Virus record (IMG/VR): IMGVR_UViG_2711768037_000005
Span: 1 to 64,000 of that record
Source of the DNA: a virus
Taxonomy: Duplodnaviria; Heunggongvirae; Uroviricota; Caudoviricetes
DNA: 64,000 nt
Reading direction: 5' to 3' (one strand)
The position numbers and the translations under genes were made by a program. The notes below the pieces were generated by a model. The model had not been told where the DNA came from, did no database searches, and was given only the letters and a program-made list of their open reading frames with translations. Numbering within the stretch: the stretch's first letter is position 1; each line of letters begins with the position of its first letter. This document shows positions 1-5,017 of this stretch, piece by piece.

Positions 1-142
1 GATCCTGGCATACAGGGTTGGTGTGTGAAAATAACTGATTAAGTGAGGAGGATGGTGTTGAAAAATAGGTAATCATATAACTATATAAATATGATGTGTG
101 ATATTAATTCACCATCCCGATTTGGCTTTTCATGGAGGAAAT

Positions 143-466
143 ATGTCGAACGAGATGGCGAGCGTGACAACAGAGCAAGTTGAGCGCATTGCCGCGATCG
201 TTGCTAGGGAAGTTGTTGGCAAATTAGGTAAAGAGCTACGAGAAGAAATTGGCCAAGAGGTCAACGACCAGCTTAAAACCTACTTTGGTGACATGACCCC
301 TGCGCAACATAGTATTCAACACTCTAATCTGGACAAACTCCTTAACCGGTTAGATTCCATCTCCAGTGGGTTCTTTGGCGGCATTGTATCTAAAATAACG
401 TCGTTCATTATTACCGCACTGCTTTTGGGGTTAGCCGCGTATGGCGTAAAAAATGGACTGCAATAA
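143..466 (+). CDS. hypothetical membrane protein with single C-terminal TM helix; possible holin or lysis regulator
   Basis: ORF track 98..466; ATG at 143 preceded by GGAGG; hydrophobic C-terminus ITSFIITALLLGLAAYGV; sits immediately upstream of the putative lysis genes. Confidence 0.3.
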   Translation: MSNEMASVTTEQVERIAAIVAREVVGKLGKELREEIGQEVNDQLKTYFGDMTPAQHSIQHSNLDKLLNRLDSISSGFFGGIVSKITSFIITALLLGLAAYGVKNGLQ

Positions 467-479
467 CAGGAGATCAAGG

Positions 480-1172
480 ATGAAGACTCCGAGAGGCATT
501 CGTAATAATAACCCCGGTAATCTGGATAAAGGATCACCGTGGCAAGGTCTGGTTGCGAATCCAGACGAACCGCGCTTTTGCACGTTTAAAGACCCTGTTT
601 GGGGGATTCGTGCGCTGGCGGTGACTCTAATTACCTACCACGACAAACGTCGCGCAAAAGACGGCTCAAGTATCGATACCATTCGTGAAGTTATTGAACG
701 TTGGGCACCGCCGAATGAAAACAACACTGACGCCTACATTAATGAGGTGTCTAAAGCCGTTGGTGTAACCGCAGACATGATCATCGATCTGCATGATTAC
801 GACATCCTTCGACCTTTGGTTGAGGCAATCATTCGCCACGAGAATGGTCGAGGTCCACTAAAAACGCTGAATACCTGGTATGCGGCAGAAGTTATTGAGG
901 AAGGTCTGCGTCGAGCTGGCGTCGTTAAGCCGGTGAAAACCGTGAAGGCTGTTCCTGTAACTAAAGAAACCGCAGGCGCAACTGTCACAGCAGGTATTGG
1001 TCTGGCGCAGCTTGCCGATGTTATGCCGCAGGTTTCCGCAGCTATGGATAAAGCACAAGGTCATATCTCTAGCGGGGATACAGTACGCATCATCTTCGGT
1101 ATTGCCACTATTGTTGTAGCAGGATTCATTGCCTGGTCGCAGGTAAGAAAACACCAGAAAGGGATGGTCTAA
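480..1172 (+). CDS. putative cell-wall hydrolase or lysis protein with conserved RNNNPGN motif and C-terminal TM anchor
   Basis: ORF 453..1172; likely ATG at 480 after CAGGAG; motif GIRNNNPGNL near N-terminus; hydrophobic segment IIFGIATIVVAGFIAW near C-terminus; position directly upstream of the spanin pair. Confidence 0.35.
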   Translation: MKTPRGIRNNNPGNLDKGSPWQGLVANPDEPRFCTFKDPVWGIRALAVTLITYHDKRRAKDGSSIDTIREVIERWAPPNENNTDAYINEVSKAVGVTADMIIDLHDYDILRPLVEAIIRHENGRGPLKTLNTWYAAEVIEEGLRRAGVVKPVKTVKAVPVTKETAGATVTAGIGLAQLADVMPQVSAAMDKAQGHISSGDTVRIIFGIATIVVAGFIAWSQVRKHQKGMV

Positions 1173-1173
1173 T

Positions 1174-1425
1174 ATGCTAGGCAGCCTGATGACAAAGCTA
1201 AAAGTTGCTTTGATTACGCTGGCTGCCGTTCTTTTCGTTCTGGTCGGCGCTTACACGATGGGCGGAAATGCGGCGCGACGAGCAATAGAAGAGAAGGCAA
1301 AACAGGAAGACAGGAAACGACTTCAAAGCACAGTGGACGTCAAAAATGAAACACTTGATGAGTTACGGAGCAAGGATGCTTCTACTGTTCATCATGAGTT
1401 GCACAATAAGTGGTTGCGTGATTAA
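1174..1425 (+). CDS. i-spanin (Rz-like)
   Basis: N-terminal TM LKVALITLAAVLFVLVGAYT followed by charged coiled-coil-like region; overlaps a lipoprotein ORF in another frame. Confidence 0.5.
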   Translation: MLGSLMTKLKVALITLAAVLFVLVGAYTMGGNAARRAIEEKAKQEDRKRLQSTVDVKNETLDELRSKDASTVHHELHNKWLRD

Positions 1426-1576
1426 GCCTCAACCCGCTGGTGTGCTTTTCTGCGATGCGGCTACACCGCTATACATCAGCCGTGATGATCTCATGACCGA
1501 AGAGACTGAAAGAGAGGTGCTTTTTCACAATATGATAGGGGAGCGATTGTGTGGATGGGGCAGAAAAGTACCATAA
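1346..1576 (+). CDS. o-spanin (Rz1-like) lipoprotein, overlapping the i-spanin gene out of frame
   Basis: Signal-like LLLFIMSCTISGC with lipobox-like cysteines, proline-rich mature part; overlapping Rz/Rz1 architecture; start may be the internal Met. Confidence 0.45.
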   Translation: MKHLMSYGARMLLLFIMSCTISGCVIKPQPAGVLFCDAATPLYISRDDLMTEETEREVLFHNMIGERLCGWGRKVP

Positions 1577-1753
1577 CAGAAGAGGAGTTTTCTAACATAA
1601 AATTTGCATATTATTAGAGCACAAGGTAGATTTGGCACATGGATGTCAAGTAAATCATCCCTTGCATTAATGCTGCGACGCATACTCGTAGCCTCTAAAC
1701 CCTGATAAGGGTCGCCGCTATGACATTAAGTTAATACCGGCTAAGGTGGACAC

Positions 1754-2137
1754 ATGCTGAACGAAAAACGTTCTATACAAACAATTCGCGATTGCACGAG
1801 TGTTATCGCAACTCATGTGCTGAATAAGCGCAAACTTGAGGTGCGTAAACTTAACAACGATGCGACTGCGCCAAAAGACACTCGCTTCATCGTAACTTTC
1901 AAAGACGATGTTGAGAATGCTGGTGCCAGTGTAAAACCGTTGGCTGAAGCGATTTTCCTGAACGATCGTGTTCGTTTCATTGTGAAGCCAGCAAAACAAT
2001 ACCCTGAATTAGCACGGTTTAGTGACCAATTCTCTGAAATTATTGAGAGTGCAATTCGCCGCTTTCTTAATACACATGGTAGCATTGTCAGCAATACAAC
2101 TGCTGATGGTACTGCTCTAAGATGGCACCTACACTAG
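1754..2137 (+). CDS. hypothetical protein
   Basis: ORF track; no recognisable motif. Confidence 0.4.
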   Translation: MLNEKRSIQTIRDCTSVIATHVLNKRKLEVRKLNNDATAPKDTRFIVTFKDDVENAGASVKPLAEAIFLNDRVRFIVKPAKQYPELARFSDQFSEIIESAIRRFLNTHGSIVSNTTADGTALRWHLH

Positions 2138-2874
2138 AACGCACATACTCTAAAAATCTTTATGAGTTTCCTCACCGTGGGGAAACTCGCGTTTCACGTT
2201 TTGGCTACCTCATCAACGAAGCATCGCTTTTCAAAATATCCGAAATAACCATTATCGAGCCTGATGATGATATCTGTCTGTATATCCTGATGGAGAAAGT
2301 TGGAGCACGAGATCAGGGTGAACTGATGGACTTCATTCTGGACAGAGGCGAAGATGGAATGTCTGATTCGGACATTATTCAAGCAATTCTGCGTTCCGAC
2401 ATGCTCGATCAGAGTAGAAACACGATAGCAGGCAGAATTGCCTTGCGTGAATACACATTCATCGAGGATGGGGTAGAGATTGACTGCTATCAGATTGCAG
2501 GTGTTGAGACAGAAAGAGCAATAAGGCAAAGGGGACTATGCAACCTCACGTATCGCTTCCTCCTTCATTGGTACGAACATCTTGTCTGTGATTACAATCA
2601 GACCATTCCTGGCGCAAAAATCTGGGCCGGTCCATTAATGCGAACAGGTGATGTAAGAATTTACAACGCAAAAACTGAGATGTTCGAGGATGTGTTAGGC
2701 GAATATGGGATGGGAAAAGAAACCGGCTTTTTGCCGTGGAACAGAGGATTGTTACTTGATCCAGAATTAAGCTCTTGGTTTCCAAATAAGGTGCAAGTTA
2801 ACGTTGAGAAATTTATCGTACTTATCATCTCCCGCAAAACAAGAACCCCAGTTGGTTTATATCTAAAAGATTAA
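2122..2874 (+). CDS. hypothetical protein
   Basis: ORF track; followed by an intrinsic terminator. Confidence 0.45.
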   Translation: MAPTLERTYSKNLYEFPHRGETRVSRFGYLINEASLFKISEITIIEPDDDICLYILMEKVGARDQGELMDFILDRGEDGMSDSDIIQAILRSDMLDQSRNTIAGRIALREYTFIEDGVEIDCYQIAGVETERAIRQRGLCNLTYRFLLHWYEHLVCDYNQTIPGAKIWAGPLMRTGDVRIYNAKTEMFEDVLGEYGMGKETGFLPWNRGLLLDPELSSWFPNKVQVNVEKFIVLIISRKTRTPVGLYLKD

Positions 2875-2879
2875 CAATT

Positions 2880-2903
2880 AGGCGACTTCGGTCGCCTTTT
2901 TTG
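2880..2903 (+). terminator. rho-independent terminator
   Basis: Hairpin AGGCGACTTCGGTCGCCT followed by TTTTTT. Confidence 0.5.
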
Positions 2904-3050
2904 TTAACAGCCATTGATTCTCGCCTAAAAATTCTAAGGCAGCACCAACCATTTAACCTTTACACAGCAGCCGTAGGCATTTAGGCTATATCACATATAA
3001 GAAAACAAGTTGTTTCAGACAATAATAATAGACGCAAAGGGAACTCTCCA

Positions 3051-3719
3051 ATGACCAAGATCTTTGTGGTTGGCGGCACAAAGGGCGGGCCTGGCAAATC
3101 CACCGTTGCCCAGCAAATTGCCGTTTGCCTGAAAGTCAAAAAGAAGAAGAAGGTTTATATTACCGATATAGATATTCAGCGCACGACAACGAGCTGGTGT
3201 GAAGACCGTCGACAGAACGAAAACCTTGAGCTGATTCCTTTTGCATATGTTCAGGATGACATCATTAAGCATCTAAAATCGCTTCAGGGTAGAGCTGAGT
3301 TTGTAGTGGTAGATGCTGGTGGCTTCGACTCCGAAATTCAGCGACAAGCGATGCTGATGGCTGACGTTATCATTATCCCGCTGCGTCCTAAGCGTCGTGA
3401 TTTGAAATCTTTACGTGACATCGATCCTATTATCGACAATGTTCGCAATGTAAACGATAAAGTGAAGGTCCGTGCGGTCATGAACCAGTGCCCGGCTTTG
3501 CCATCACAAGTGTCTCGCATTCTGGCGGCTAAAGAGATTGTCGAGACGTTTGGCATCGAGCCTGCGCCTGTCAATCTATATAACCGCAACGTCTACGATG
3601 ATGCGGAAGAGTCTGGTCGTTCTATCTTTGAAATGACCGGTAGCGAGCGCGACAAAAAGGCGGAAGCCGAGTTTGAAGAATTTGTAGATTATCTATTGAG
3701 TCTGGAGGAAGAAGAATAA
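3051..3719 (+). CDS. parA: ParA/MinD-family partition ATPase (small ParA type)
   Basis: Deviant Walker A GGTKGGPGKST at N-terminus; 222 aa; stop overlaps start of a small downstream gene. Confidence 0.75.
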   Translation: MTKIFVVGGTKGGPGKSTVAQQIAVCLKVKKKKKVYITDIDIQRTTTSWCEDRRQNENLELIPFAYVQDDIIKHLKSLQGRAEFVVVDAGGFDSEIQRQAMLMADVIIIPLRPKRRDLKSLRDIDPIIDNVRNVNDKVKVRAVMNQCPALPSQVSRILAAKEIVETFGIEPAPVNLYNRNVYDDAEESGRSIFEMTGSERDKKAEAEFEEFVDYLLSLEEEE

Positions 3720-4078
3720 TGTCCATGAAAATGGGTGACCTAGCAAAGCGCAAAGAACCAGATGCACTGGCCAAGAACACAACTCCTTTGCGCCAACCAG
3801 TCAGACCACAGGGACGCCCGACTCGTGGCAAAGAGAAAATTAAAAGCCGCACAATGTCGCTGGAGGACGAATACTTTGAACTTCTGGAAATGATGAAGTG
3901 TATCCCTCGCTTCGAGAAGTTCACCCGTTCTGATGTGATTCGCGCAGCCATTTTCCATCTGGCAGAGAAGTCACCGCAGGAAATCGAGGACATTGTGAAA
4001 CTTAACGAGGCGATCACAGCTGCCGATGTAACGATGCGTACCGATGAAATCAAGCGAGAACTCATGAAAAAAGGCTGA
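3719..4078 (+). CDS. small ribbon-helix-helix-like partner protein (ParG/ParB-like centromere binder), putative
   Basis: Translationally coupled to parA (TAATG overlap); 119 aa with basic N-terminus and RHH-like segment MSLEDEYFELLEMMK. Confidence 0.4.
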   Translation: MSMKMGDLAKRKEPDALAKNTTPLRQPVRPQGRPTRGKEKIKSRTMSLEDEYFELLEMMKCIPRFEKFTRSDVIRAAIFHLAEKSPQEIEDIVKLNEAITAADVTMRTDEIKRELMKKG

Positions 4079-4108
4079 CAACTTCCGGTCTGGCAGCTTC
4101 AATCAGAA

Positions 4109-4166
4109 CCTGTTTCTGTATATAAATAATAAGTAACTTATTATTTATACGGAAGCAGGTCTTTTA
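4109..4166. terminator. large AT-rich hairpin with T-run; likely bidirectional terminator
   Basis: CCTGTTTCTGTATATAAAT ... ATTTATACGGAAGCAGG inverted repeat then TCTTTT; near-identical element at 50821-50893. Confidence 0.45.
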
Positions 4167-4267
4167 AAAGAAACCCACCAGAACAACTCCCTTCCGTTTT
4201 CACTTCCAAAAACTGACACCAGTCGCTATCATCCGCTCATTGCAATAAGTAAGTAACAACCTACCTG

Positions 4268-5017
4268 GTGAGCCACATGAGCCAAATCTTTTTCGATACC
4301 ATCGACAACGACCAGTACGACTTCATGACAGAGTGGAATACCGCTGTTATGGACAAGTGGGTCGCTGAAAACATTGGTTTGTCGCGCTGTAAAGACGAGG
4401 CTGAACTCTTCGAGACGAAGTGGTTTGATTACCGCGACATGCATCCTCTGATGGCCACCTGTCTTTTTACGGAGGCATACAAACGTCAGTACTCAAATAT
4501 CATGCTGACGCACGGTCGTGAACACTTTGAAACAGCTCCGTTCACCACCGGGTTAAAACGCCTGCCTTATCAGGAGTTGTCGACTGCTAATAAAACGTCG
4601 CTATGGAAAGCACGCCAGTTTGCGGATCGCTATTGCTGCTCATACGACTACTTTATCTCCACCGTTCTTTCCGCAGCTGCACGACGGCTGTGGGACAAGC
4701 TGCCGCGCCCACAGCATTTATGGCAGCCAGAGCTGGTTGAGATATTCGAAGAGAAATTAGCCAGACGCGCAACAACACGTCTAGATGATTCTCTGATTAG
4801 CTTTAAGCATATGGGAGACATGCAGTTCAACCCGATTCAGGAAAGCTATTTTGAGTGGATTCTGGAGCGTTTGCGCACTATCCCTCGCAGCAAGCGCATA
4901 CGCGCAATTTTCTCCGCTATCTGGTTAATGGAAATCGTTCCAGAACGCCTTATTTCCGCCCACTTTCCAGAAGAACTGGAAGAAGCACGGCGGTTTATTG
5001 ATCCCCTATCTAATTAA
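4268..5017 (+). CDS. hypothetical protein (position suggests a helicase-associated factor)
   Basis: ORF track; immediately upstream of the helicase gene. Confidence 0.45.
   Translation: MSHMSQIFFDTIDNDQYDFMTEWNTAVMDKWVAENIGLSRCKDEAELFETKWFDYRDMHPLMATCLFTEAYKRQYSNIMLTHGREHFETAPFTTGLKRLPYQELSTANKTSLWKARQFADRYCCSYDYFISTVLSAAARRLWDKLPRPQHLWQPELVEIFEEKLARRATTRLDDSLISFKHMGDMQFNPIQESYFEWILERLRTIPRSKRIRAIFSAIWLMEIVPERLISAHFPEELEEARRFIDPLSN

Follow-up and report, generated by a model that had tools for sequence, protein, structure and literature searches.

A probable late lysis cassette with a predicted C-terminally anchored endolysin in an SSU5-like phage-plasmid

Gene content and genomic context

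Four closely packed open reading frames occupy positions 143-1576 of the window, the 64,000-nucleotide stretch of viral DNA analyzed here (Table 1). In order, they encode a 107-aa protein (p107), a 230-aa predicted peptidoglycan hydrolase, and a candidate pair of spanins. A sequence-only reading had proposed a lysis cassette at these same coordinates. The window is an SSU5-like phage-plasmid, with DNA identities of 82-96% to phages PhiR41_1, Cyrano and SSU5, and the region is matched by 735 plasmid records. The corresponding genes of SSU5 (SSU5_026-030) and Cyrano (CYRAN_22-25) lie directly 3' of tail fibre genes and are annotated as holin, endolysin and spanins.

Table 1. Features of the lysis cassette region
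Feature	Position	Strand	Basis
Shine-Dalgarno GGAGG of the first cassette gene	134..138	+	Read from sequence; 4 nt upstream of ATG 143
p107, 107 aa, tail-anchored, in holin position	143..466	+	phrog_5093 E=1.4e-68; TM ~81-102 = nt 383-448
Enc34/M4Lys-type endolysin with C-terminal anchor, 230 aa	480..1172	+	PDB 7Q47 E=2.6e-54; phrog_873 'endolysin' E=3.4e-88
Endolysin enzymatic domain	residues 1-146, nt 480-917	+	
Endolysin RNNNPGN motif	residues 8-14	+	
Endolysin catalytic Glu121 codon	nt 840-842	+	
Endolysin linker	residues 147-163	+	
Endolysin weakly hydrophobic helix	residues 164-190, nt 969-1049	+	
Endolysin strong TM, then basic tail	residues 202-222, nt 1083-1145	+	
i-spanin, 83 aa	1174..1425	+	phrog_1026 'Rz-like spanin' E=9.1e-23; TM 11-29 = nt 1204-1260
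o-spanin lipoprotein, 76 aa from ATG 1346	1346..1576	+	phrog_1275 'Rz-like spanin' E=8.8e-23
o-spanin lipobox ISGC	nt 1406-1417; lipidated Cys24 at 1415-1417	+	

The order of the cassette is identical in the window, SSU5, Cyrano and chi, with the endolysin gene placed between a first gene in the holin position and the spanins. All four genes are found in this order at 78 of 80 IMG/VR loci, and the remaining two loci are cut by contig ends. Together with the conservation of transmembrane (TM) segments and the recurrence of a lipobox-bearing +1 ORF (see below), this retention argues that the cassette recognized on first reading is not a product of chance. A search for related loci with a narrower p107 alignment returned only near-identical SSU5-like loci, and is informative about synteny rather than diversity.

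Scans of all four proteins against Pfam and NCBIfam produced only sub-threshold noise. There is no Pfam-A or NCBIfam model for any of them, which explains why they appear as 'hypothetical protein' in the RefSeq plasmid records inspected. A scan of the region for promoters and terminators gave results no better than those for shuffled sequence. Literature searches found no experiment on the 230-aa protein or on any SSU5-like cassette.

The endolysin and its membrane anchor

The second gene had been read as encoding a membrane-anchored hydrolase, and its relationships uphold that assignment. Residues 3-151 match the Enc34 catalytic domain (PDB 7Q47) by phmmer, and a Foldseek search with the AlphaFold2 model returns the same structure as its top match (E=1.2e-14, TM-score 0.79, 60% identity). 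The profile search suggested in the sequence-only reading places the protein in the phrog_873 'endolysin' family. Chi gp38 is 56% identical over residues 4-228. This alignment extends to the end of the C-terminal region, which indicates homology of the anchor as well. In 182 phage records, matches span at least 80% of the protein.

Residues W75, Y86 and E121 are invariant across 33 homologues and align with Trp79, Tyr95 and Glu131 of Enc34, where Glu131 is catalytic and the two aromatic residues position the substrate (PMC8943055). Invariant positions in the same 33 proteins also extend through the anchor region (P159, T161, E163, A167, G174, Q177, P183, A188, S198, A218 and Q221). When the 22 most divergent of the aligned homologues are compared with the window, identity averages 0.59 for the second TM segment and 0.63 for the enzymatic domain. 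The TM regions of the endolysin are thus about as conserved as its catalytic domain.

The protein begins MKTPRGIRNNNPGN and lacks an N-terminal signal or hydrophobic segment. Its N-terminus (MKTPRGIRNNNPGNLDKGSPW) is hydrophilic, and the first hydrophobic window occurs at residue 164 or later. The C-terminal TM helix proposed earlier is present, with a Kyte-Doolittle (KD) value of 2.07 and a basic tail (SQVRKHQKGMV) after it, but the anchor is a two-helix module rather than a single helix. The additional helix, which the sequence-only reading had not mentioned, has a KD value of ~1.1 and consists of 52% G, A, S or T residues. AlphaFold pLDDT is below 50 at residues 159-196, so the model does not support the predicted membrane hairpin. 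These comparisons support a view of the 230-aa protein as a PHA02564/Enc34-type peptidoglycan hydrolase, with a predicted all-helical, lysozyme-like catalytic domain and a C-terminal two-helix membrane anchor.

Membrane-anchored endolysins of this type are already known and have been partly characterized in chi-like phages. The architecture was reported in 2019 for phage Siskin (PMC6498227), biochemical and genetic characterization of M4Lys followed in 2020 (PMC7143992), and the structure of the Enc34 endolysin was solved in 2022 (PMC8943055). 'C-terminal anchor (CTA)' endolysin is a class name reported by way of a 2026 preprint. The tail-anchored lysin, which the sequence-only reading considered an unusual export or activation route, had thus already been described for Siskin, M4Lys and Enc34. 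The Enc34 authors considered the architecture to be confined to Chivirus and certain of its relatives (PMC8943055). It is also widespread in SSU5-like plasmids from Escherichia, Klebsiella, Salmonella, Cronobacter, Xenorhabdus, Providencia and Photorhabdus.

Experiments on these homologues indicate what the anchor might contribute. Enc34 ORF39 is muralytic when its C-terminal part is missing, and the full-length protein is toxic. M4Lys lyses E. coli by itself, and removal of its TM domain abolishes lysis (PMC7143992). The TM domain alone is bacteriostatic. By analogy with Enc34 ORF39 and M4Lys only, the 230-aa protein would be muralytic and would depend on its TM region for lysis.

An overlapped spanin pair

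The third gene starts 1 nt past the endolysin stop codon. Its product carries an N-terminal TM segment (residues 11-29, KD 2.38) followed by a charged, helical domain that is predicted to be periplasmic. Its identity to SSU5_028 is 80%, and it shows weak similarity to chi gp39. The fourth gene starts inside the third, in the +1 frame relative to it (1346 mod 3 = 2, 1174 mod 3 = 1), and runs past its stop codon. This bears out the out-of-frame overlap at the 3' end of the i-spanin gene noted from the sequence alone. The overlap is 80 nt if translation begins at 1346, and 68 or 50 nt if the start codon is ATG 1358 or ATG 1376. The last of these has GGAG 5 nt upstream.

The product of the fourth gene has a lipoprotein signal, MLLLFIMSCTISG|C, with a lipobox cysteine at residue 24. 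It is 49% identical to chi gp40 (E=1.7e-18), and lipobox-bearing +1 ORFs occur at the same overlapped position in three divergent loci (L005, L008 and L010). Accordingly, genes 3 and 4 are supported, from sequence features, as a putative overlapped two-component spanin pair. Two genes inserted in the cassette of L008, from Providencia, have no significant similarity to a pair of genes located upstream of the p107 gene in L005.

Overlapped spanins are the most common architecture, accounting for 228 of the 528 systems surveyed by Kongari et al. 2018. The pair described here is of the same overlapped type as P2 LysB/LysC, but differs in its short i-spanin (83 aa) and in its membership of phrog_1026 and phrog_1275, which are common to chi-like phages.

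p107 and its family

p107 is the only poorly understood part of the cassette. Its N-terminal domain is acidic and helical, it contains the motif FGDMTPAQHSIQH, and its single hydrophobic stretch at residues ~77-102 (best 19-mer 81-99, KD 2.02) leaves a C-terminal tail of 5-8 residues. AlphaFold2 predicts two long helices (residues 10-48 and 53-104) with a pLDDT of 85.6 and a low pTM of 0.36, such that neither helix packing nor oligomer state can be read from the model. Hydrophobicity, this model and comparison with relatives all agree with the initial description of the 107-aa protein as C-tail-anchored, and not a multi-TM holin.

Translation of p107 most likely begins at ATG 143. An in-frame GTG at 98 was rejected as the start because ATG 143 is closely preceded by GGAGG and homologous proteins start with MSNE. 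A lambda-like dual start (Met1/Met5, MSNEM) was also rejected, because relatives at 63-68% identity do not have the second Met.

The protein belongs to phrog_5093, which is annotated 'unknown function', and 30 of 30 family members match only phrog_5093. The family comprises ~55 representative clusters, all of one architecture. G49, H56 and H60 are invariant in 30 diverse members, and in 29 of the 30 the tail that follows the TM segment is 5-18 residues long with a net charge of 0 to +2. A family profile found nothing among PDB sequences. Two distant relatives compared by tblastn to 50,697 phage records identified only the same 12 SSU5-like records, and by this measure p107 is confined, among sequenced phage isolates, to SSU5-like phage-plasmids.

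Some attributes of p107 are those of a holin. As expected for such proteins, it is small, has at least one TM segment and adjoins an endolysin, and its SSU5 counterpart is annotated as 'putative holin' and its Cyrano counterpart as 'Holin'. The charged, hydrophilic C-terminal domain that is typical of holins was not found in p107, where the hydrophilic domain is N-terminal. Nor did p107 match any described holin family in Pfam or NCBIfam.

Members of the family are the first genes of cassettes with five types of endolysin: Peptidase_M15_3, Amidase_2, GH108, phrog_669 and the Enc34 type. They combine interchangeably with soluble enzymes (M15 peptidase, amidase and GH108) and C-terminally anchored ones. 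In L014, a p107 relative is located directly upstream of a phrog_8226 'holin', and in three further loci (L012, L016 and L101) p107 relatives share the cassette with 2-TM proteins of 83-91 aa. The presence of a second, multi-TM holin-like gene in several metagenomic cassettes suggests that p107 may not be the hole-former.

Relation to known lysis systems

The 230-aa endolysin shares with Enc34 ORF39, M4Lys and chi gp38 a catalytic domain, linker, two-helix module and basic tail, as well as a similar length (230 versus 237 aa). It also shares a location between a first gene and overlapped spanins, both of which are homologous in the two groups. The endolysins are ~56-60% identical, and the first cassette genes are unrelated. 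The host elements differ as well, since SSU5-like elements are ~108-kb temperate phage-plasmids whereas chi-like phages are ~60-kb flagellotropic phages.

The putative 'class IV' holins of Siskin and chi (gp37; ORF_37 of BSPM4) resemble p107 in general design. Both are small single-pass proteins (~110 aa) whose soluble domain of ~70 aa is helical, and both are encoded immediately upstream of an anchored endolysin. However, the TM segment of p107 is at its extreme C-terminus, whereas that of chi gp37 is near the N-terminus, giving the two proteins mirrored polarity. No significant BLASTP match connects them, and hhalign assigns a probability of 0.7% to their relationship. The distinctness of p107 from the chi-type holin, and the position of its unannotated family at the head of cassettes with five endolysin types, seem to be new.

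Other phages also tether their endolysins to the membrane. LysAP of Acidovorax phage AP1 is a GH24 lysozyme with a C-terminal TM domain that is required for membrane localization and lysis. LysAP alone lysed E. coli, and co-expression of HolAP enhanced lysis. Its catalytic domain, with an E/D/T triad, is unrelated to that of the 230-aa endolysin, which suggests an independent origin of the anchored architecture. In SAR endolysins such as P1 Lyz and Mu gp22, a TM segment likewise keeps the enzyme at the inner membrane. These proteins have a weakly hydrophobic, Gly/Ala-rich helix like that of the 230-aa protein. In contrast to the C-terminal anchor and hydrophilic N-terminus described here, the SAR anchor is N-terminal and Sec-exported.

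Models for the control of lysis

The sequence comparisons establish homology and architecture, show that catalytic residues and synteny are conserved, and reveal a modular pairing of parts. Taken together, they make it very probable that positions 143-1576, directly after the tail-fibre genes, constitute the cassette for late lysis in an SSU5-like siphovirus whose prophage persists as a plasmid, with a CTA endolysin, p107 as its partner and overlapped spanins. Lysis functions are demonstrated in homologues only. Topology and trigger are inferred from work on those homologues, and what p107 does from its position and gene neighborhoods.

In the course of lysis that seems most likely, the endolysin would build up at the inner membrane while its catalytic domain stays in the cytoplasm, held by an N-in/C-in hairpin of the kind predicted by the Siskin authors. 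The membrane module, which follows a linker of ~17 residues, would consist of a SAR-like weak helix and then a strong TM segment with a basic cytoplasmic tail. The enzyme would gain access to the cell wall only once the membrane has been breached, a step for which its own membrane module would be needed and to which that module may contribute. p107 would act as a timing or permeabilizing partner, whether as a holin or as a regulator resembling one. The spanin pair would then disrupt the outer membrane.

Tentatively, the p107 family may be a new class of holins or lysis-timing proteins with a tail anchor. The class would be defined by an acidic two-helix cytoplasmic domain, an invariant G-x6-H-x3-H pattern, a single C-terminal TM segment and almost no periplasmic tail.

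It is also conceivable, if somewhat doubtful, that p107 is a regulator (an antiholin, a timer or a 'releasin'-like protein) whose acidic domain, tethered to the membrane in the cytoplasm, delays or promotes a lesion made by the endolysin's own two-helix module. Such a role would fit the behavior of M4Lys, which lyses cells without a partner and whose TM domain is inhibitory by itself. Its partner BSPM4 ORF_37, which is not homologous to p107, was dispensable for lysis in vitro and slightly delayed M4Lys lysis when co-expressed, but holin-independent lysis by M4Lys was observed only under overexpression. Mu releasin gp25 offers a precedent for a membrane-tethered protein with an acidic cytoplasmic domain that controls an anchored endolysin and is not a holin. 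However, p107 is unrelated to the DUF2730 family of gp25 (hhalign probability 0.2%), its TM segment is C-terminal rather than N-terminal (N-out, C-in), and its profile has no detectable similarity to gp25 or chi gp37. The PHROG-annotated holin beside the p107 relative in L014, the 2-TM proteins in other cassettes, and the invariant His56 and His60 in the soluble part, which would be unusual for a pure pore-former, all favor a regulator. On the other hand, L018 encodes a GH108 endolysin and has no multi-TM holin candidate among the genes examined. This enzyme is soluble and needs a hole-former, which argues against p107 as a regulator.

Less likely is an arrangement (N-out, C-in) in which the catalytic domain crosses to the periplasm and is kept inactive at the membrane like a SAR endolysin, with p107 serving as a pinholin-like depolarizing trigger that releases or activates the enzyme. 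The M4Lys authors predicted a periplasmic N-terminus using Phobius and Phyre2, the Enc34 authors raise the analogy to SAR endolysins and pinholins, and both the basic tail and the SAR-domain-like composition of the weak helix would be compatible with this topology. Export is difficult to reconcile with an endolysin that has no signal or hydrophobic segment at its N-terminus. In addition, the Sec inhibitor sodium azide (NaN3) delayed but did not prevent lysis when M4Lys was overexpressed.

A role for the 230-aa protein as a virion-associated, entry-stage peptidoglycan hydrolase is highly improbable. The same domain does occur in tape-measure, T7-like internal virion and head proteins and in the 1295-aa Gp29 of PDB 9vvp, and the NCBI conserved-domain name of PHA02564 is 'virion protein', but this copy is a stand-alone anchored protein embedded between a holin-position gene and spanins. 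Its full length is homologous to proteins with demonstrated lysis from within, and neither the SSU5 flanks nor the first 50 kb of Cyrano contain another gene annotated as endolysin. The condition that the sequence-only reading had set for its own refutation, a virion structural protein without muralytic activity, does not overturn it, given the proven muralytic and lytic activity of relatives of this cassette-embedded form.

Significance of the SSU5-like cassette

Recognition of an anchored lysin is in itself of little consequence, given the crystal structure and lysis genetics already available from chi-like phages. This combination of anchored endolysin and spanins is found behind first genes of three unrelated kinds, which are of the chi gp37 type, p107 or Phage_holin_3_3. 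If the proposed reading of p107 is true, the SSU5 cassette would thus be a natural swap experiment on the triggering of CTA endolysins. SSU5-like elements would provide a genetically tractable E. coli/Salmonella system, with the same endolysin and a different partner of mirrored topology, for examining the route by which CTA endolysins reach the wall. Several SSU5-like phage-plasmids also carry resistance genes, for example CTX-M-15 (PMC5427194).

The cassette and its source

The window is an SSU5-like phage-plasmid, as shown by its DNA identity to three phages (Escherichia phage PhiR41_1, 96%; Cyrano, 93%; Salmonella phage SSU5, 82%) and by matches of the region to 735 plasmid records. Most of these records are non-mobilizable plasmids from Klebsiella, Escherichia, Enterobacter and Salmonella, and the best matches are usually near 110 kb in length.

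Four open reading frames occupy window positions 143-1576, all in one direction and with nearly no gaps between them. The sequence-only reading had proposed a lysis cassette here, with a membrane-anchored putative hydrolase and overlapping spanins. The observation was confirmed and its interpretation supported, and the proposed membrane layout of the four proteins matches hydrophobicity analysis. The genes very probably form a functional lysis cassette that combines an Enc34-type anchored endolysin with an overlapped two-component spanin.

Genes of the lysis cassette in the window
Gene	Positions	Strand	Product	Remarks
p107 gene	143-466	+	107 aa	GGAGG at 134-138 ahead of start
Endolysin gene	480-1172	+	230 aa	
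i-spanin gene	1174-1425	+	83 aa	Start 1 nt past endolysin stop
o-spanin gene	1346-1576	+	76 aa	+1 frame relative to i-spanin gene

The feature is already known. The SSU5 and Cyrano records name the four genes as putative holin, endolysin and Rz/Rz1 spanins, located after the tail-fibre genes and before parA, and for the endolysin class a structure, enzymology and lysis genetics have been published. In the eight best-matching RefSeq plasmid records of the 735 (H79-H86), genes of this region are almost all labeled 'hypothetical protein', in keeping with the absence of a Pfam-A or NCBIfam model for any of the four proteins. Annotation of this common family of phage-plasmids has a gap here.

The stretch between the cassette and parA (3051-3719), window 1577-3050, is variable and looks like a cargo hotspot. 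It is occupied in the window by two open reading frames without Pfam matches (1754-2137 and 2122-2874), in Cyrano by a KacT toxin with its antitoxin, and in SSU5 by other hypothetical genes.

An anchored endolysin of the Enc34/M4Lys type

Sequence and modeled structure both assign the 230-aa protein to the endolysin type represented by Enc34 and by M4Lys of phage BSPM4. Its AlphaFold2 model (residues 20-150 at pLDDT 78-96) has a single significant PDB match, the Enc34 catalytic domain (7Q47, E=1.2e-14, TM-score 0.79). In an alignment of 33 homologues with identity down to 56%, residues W75, Y86 and E121 are invariant and align with Enc34 Trp79, Tyr95 and the catalytic Glu131 (PMC8943055). The RNNNPGN motif cited in the sequence-only reading proves to be the conserved N-terminal signature of the catalytic domain, with R8, N11, P12, G13 and N14 invariant.

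Hydrophobicity analysis places a strong transmembrane (TM) segment at about 202-222; the residues after it, SQVRKHQKGMV, form a basic tail. It also adds a feature absent from the earlier description, a weakly hydrophobic helix rich in Gly, Ala, Ser and Thr at 164-190. The endolysin of phage chi, gp38, aligns from residue 4 to 228 (56% identity), so the membrane module is homologous and not the enzyme alone. This C-terminal module is constrained about as much as the enzyme: the 22 most distant rows have a mean identity of 0.63 in the catalytic domain and 0.59 in the TM, and invariant anchor residues include P159, T161, E163, G174, Q177, P183, S198, A218 and Q221.

The catalytic domain (PHA02564, window 480-900) also occurs inside large virion proteins, such as T7-like internal virion proteins and tape-measure proteins. 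For example, the 1295-aa Gp29 (PDB 9vvp) contains it (E=5.6e-22). One wall-cutting domain therefore serves both phage entry and exit.

A tail-anchored lysin had been regarded as an unusual export or activation route. The anchor is real, but the arrangement is not new. The 2019 announcement of phage Siskin reported an endolysin that carries two TM domains at its C-terminus and is predicted to lie N-in/C-in, and flagged a possible 'class IV' holin (PMC6498227). Without its TM domain, M4Lys cuts peptidoglycan, and glucosaminidase activity was suggested. On its own at full length it lyses E. coli, and NaN3 slows but does not stop this lysis (PMC7143992, 2020). M4Lys no longer lyses cells when its TM domain is truncated, the isolated TM domain is bacteriostatic, and ORF_37, the partner encoded upstream, is not needed in vitro (PMC7143992). 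The fold of the Enc34 catalytic domain is all-helical and related, in permuted form, to the lysozyme alpha-lobe; the domain shows muralytic activity against permeabilised E. coli, Pseudomonas and Hafnia cells, and the full-length endolysin is toxic (PMC8943055, 2022). Similar behaviour is seen in LysAP of phage AP1, a GH24 endolysin that is unrelated and has its TM domain at the C-terminus. According to a 2026 preprint, 'C-terminal anchor (CTA) endolysins' have been put forward as a third major class, whose mechanism is still open.

An ordinary spanin pair

The i-spanin has an N-terminal TM segment, and the signal sequence of the o-spanin closes with the lipobox I-S-G-C. Both proteins match Rz-like spanin PHROGs (phrog_1026, E=9.1e-23, and phrog_1275, E=8.8e-23, respectively). 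Among the chi proteins, gp40 shares 49% identity with the o-spanin, and gp39 shows weak similarity to the i-spanin. In divergent loci a +1-frame lipobox reading frame again spans the end of the i-spanin gene, and the mature o-spanin conserves C-V-x-K ... F-C-D ... P-I-Y-I ... E-T ... H-N ... L-C-x-W. This pair is ordinary. Overlapped genes are more frequent than any other spanin arrangement (228 of 528 systems; Kongari et al. 2018), and those of Enc34 overlap in the manner of phage P2.

Annotated o-spanin starts are inconsistent among records (window 1346-1576; 4347-4466 in locus L002; 4262-4492 in L001). The Cyrano 'Rz1' is annotated from a GTG that corresponds to window 1442 (VLFCDAA...) and lacks the signal peptide and ISGC lipobox, and the SSU5 RefSeq record carries two nested coding sequences. 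The lipobox-bearing frame must start at 1346, 1358 or 1376. The gene overlap is 80 nt from the first of these and 68 or 50 nt from the ATGs at 1358 or 1376; of these starts, 1376 has the best Shine-Dalgarno sequence.

In a Providencia phage-plasmid (L008), two added genes (3731-4725) between the anchored endolysin and the i-spanin split an otherwise conserved cassette. Their products (103 and 227 aa) have no TM segment or Pfam match, and are not significantly similar to the two proteins (100 and 231 aa) encoded upstream of p107 in L005.

The p107 family and its partners

The one component that the chi-like precedent does not explain is p107, which shows no similarity to the chi holin-position protein gp37 by BLASTP or profile comparison, nor to Mu releasin gp25. 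It had been described as C-tail-anchored, and hydrophobicity analysis agrees: its single hydrophobic stretch lies at the extreme C-terminus (best 19-mer 81-99) and is followed by a very short tail.

All that a word-indexed search recovered were close relatives in SSU5-like elements; a profile search run exhaustively over 1.84 billion representatives yielded about 55 clusters of 94-143 aa with a shared layout. Alignment of 30 members shows invariant G49, H56 and H60 within the motif F-G-D-M-T-P-x-Q-H-x-I-Q-H-x-R, an acidic or neutral N-domain (net charge 0 to -7) and a single hydrophobic segment, at the C-terminus, with a tail of 5-18 residues in 29 of them. All 30 match phrog_5093 ('unknown function') and none a Pfam family. 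AlphaFold2 predicts two long helices for p107, 10-48 and 53-104 (mean pLDDT 85.6). This uncharacterised family is part of what remains new about the cassette.

A family member heads the lysis cassette in eight neighbourhoods with enough flanking DNA. Directly downstream lies an Enc34-type endolysin (member P0018), a Peptidase_M15_3 enzyme (P0151, P0161, P0176, P0201), an Amidase_2 enzyme (P0186) or a GH108 enzyme with PG_binding_3 (P0170); at P0155 a phrog_8226 'holin' precedes a phrog_669 endolysin. The M15, amidase and GH108 enzymes of these cassettes have no TM segment. Conversely, three first genes that are unrelated to one another accompany the Enc34-type anchored endolysin: those for chi gp37, for p107 and for a Phage_holin_3_3 protein. 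Each module is therefore independent of the other.

The Phage_holin_3_3 protein is a third kind of partner, found on a 444-kb contig (L010/L011, 1911-3947). There the anchored endolysin (232 aa, 59-60% identical) lies downstream of this protein and a LysC-like lipoprotein; genes of the p107 or gp37 type are absent.

Role of p107 and route of the endolysin

Participation of p107 in lysis is supported by the usual positional evidence. These neighbourhoods do not prove that it forms the hole. Several cassettes also contain a multi-TM holin-like protein, and the charged C-terminal domain that holins typically have is absent from p107. Roles as a holin or as a regulator are close to evenly weighted.

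For the endolysin, published topology predictions disagree between Siskin (PMC6498227) and M4Lys (PMC7143992). The Enc34 authors stated that no route is known for export of an N-terminal domain by a C-terminal signal, and raised a SAR-like tether-and-release idea (PMC8943055). We favour a cytoplasmic catalytic domain that an N-in/C-in hairpin would keep tethered until a breach of the membrane, because the protein has no N-terminal signal, a basic tail after the TM segment and the weakly hydrophobic helix at 164-190. The AlphaFold model contains no confident hairpin. For this endolysin class, whose activation still lacks an explanation, SSU5-like elements offer a second setting that is tractable.

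Three metagenomic cassettes with a p107 relative encode a two-TM protein of 83-91 aa after a soluble endolysin (L012, 4791-5066; L016, 3800-4057; L101, 3766-4017). These proteins have weak matches to PHROGs of unknown function, or none, and could be the real holins there. In the GH108 cassette (L018), a second small tail-anchored protein, of 71 aa, is encoded at 2683-2898, just upstream of the p107 relative; it matches no family and has an acidic N-domain and a C-terminal TM segment.
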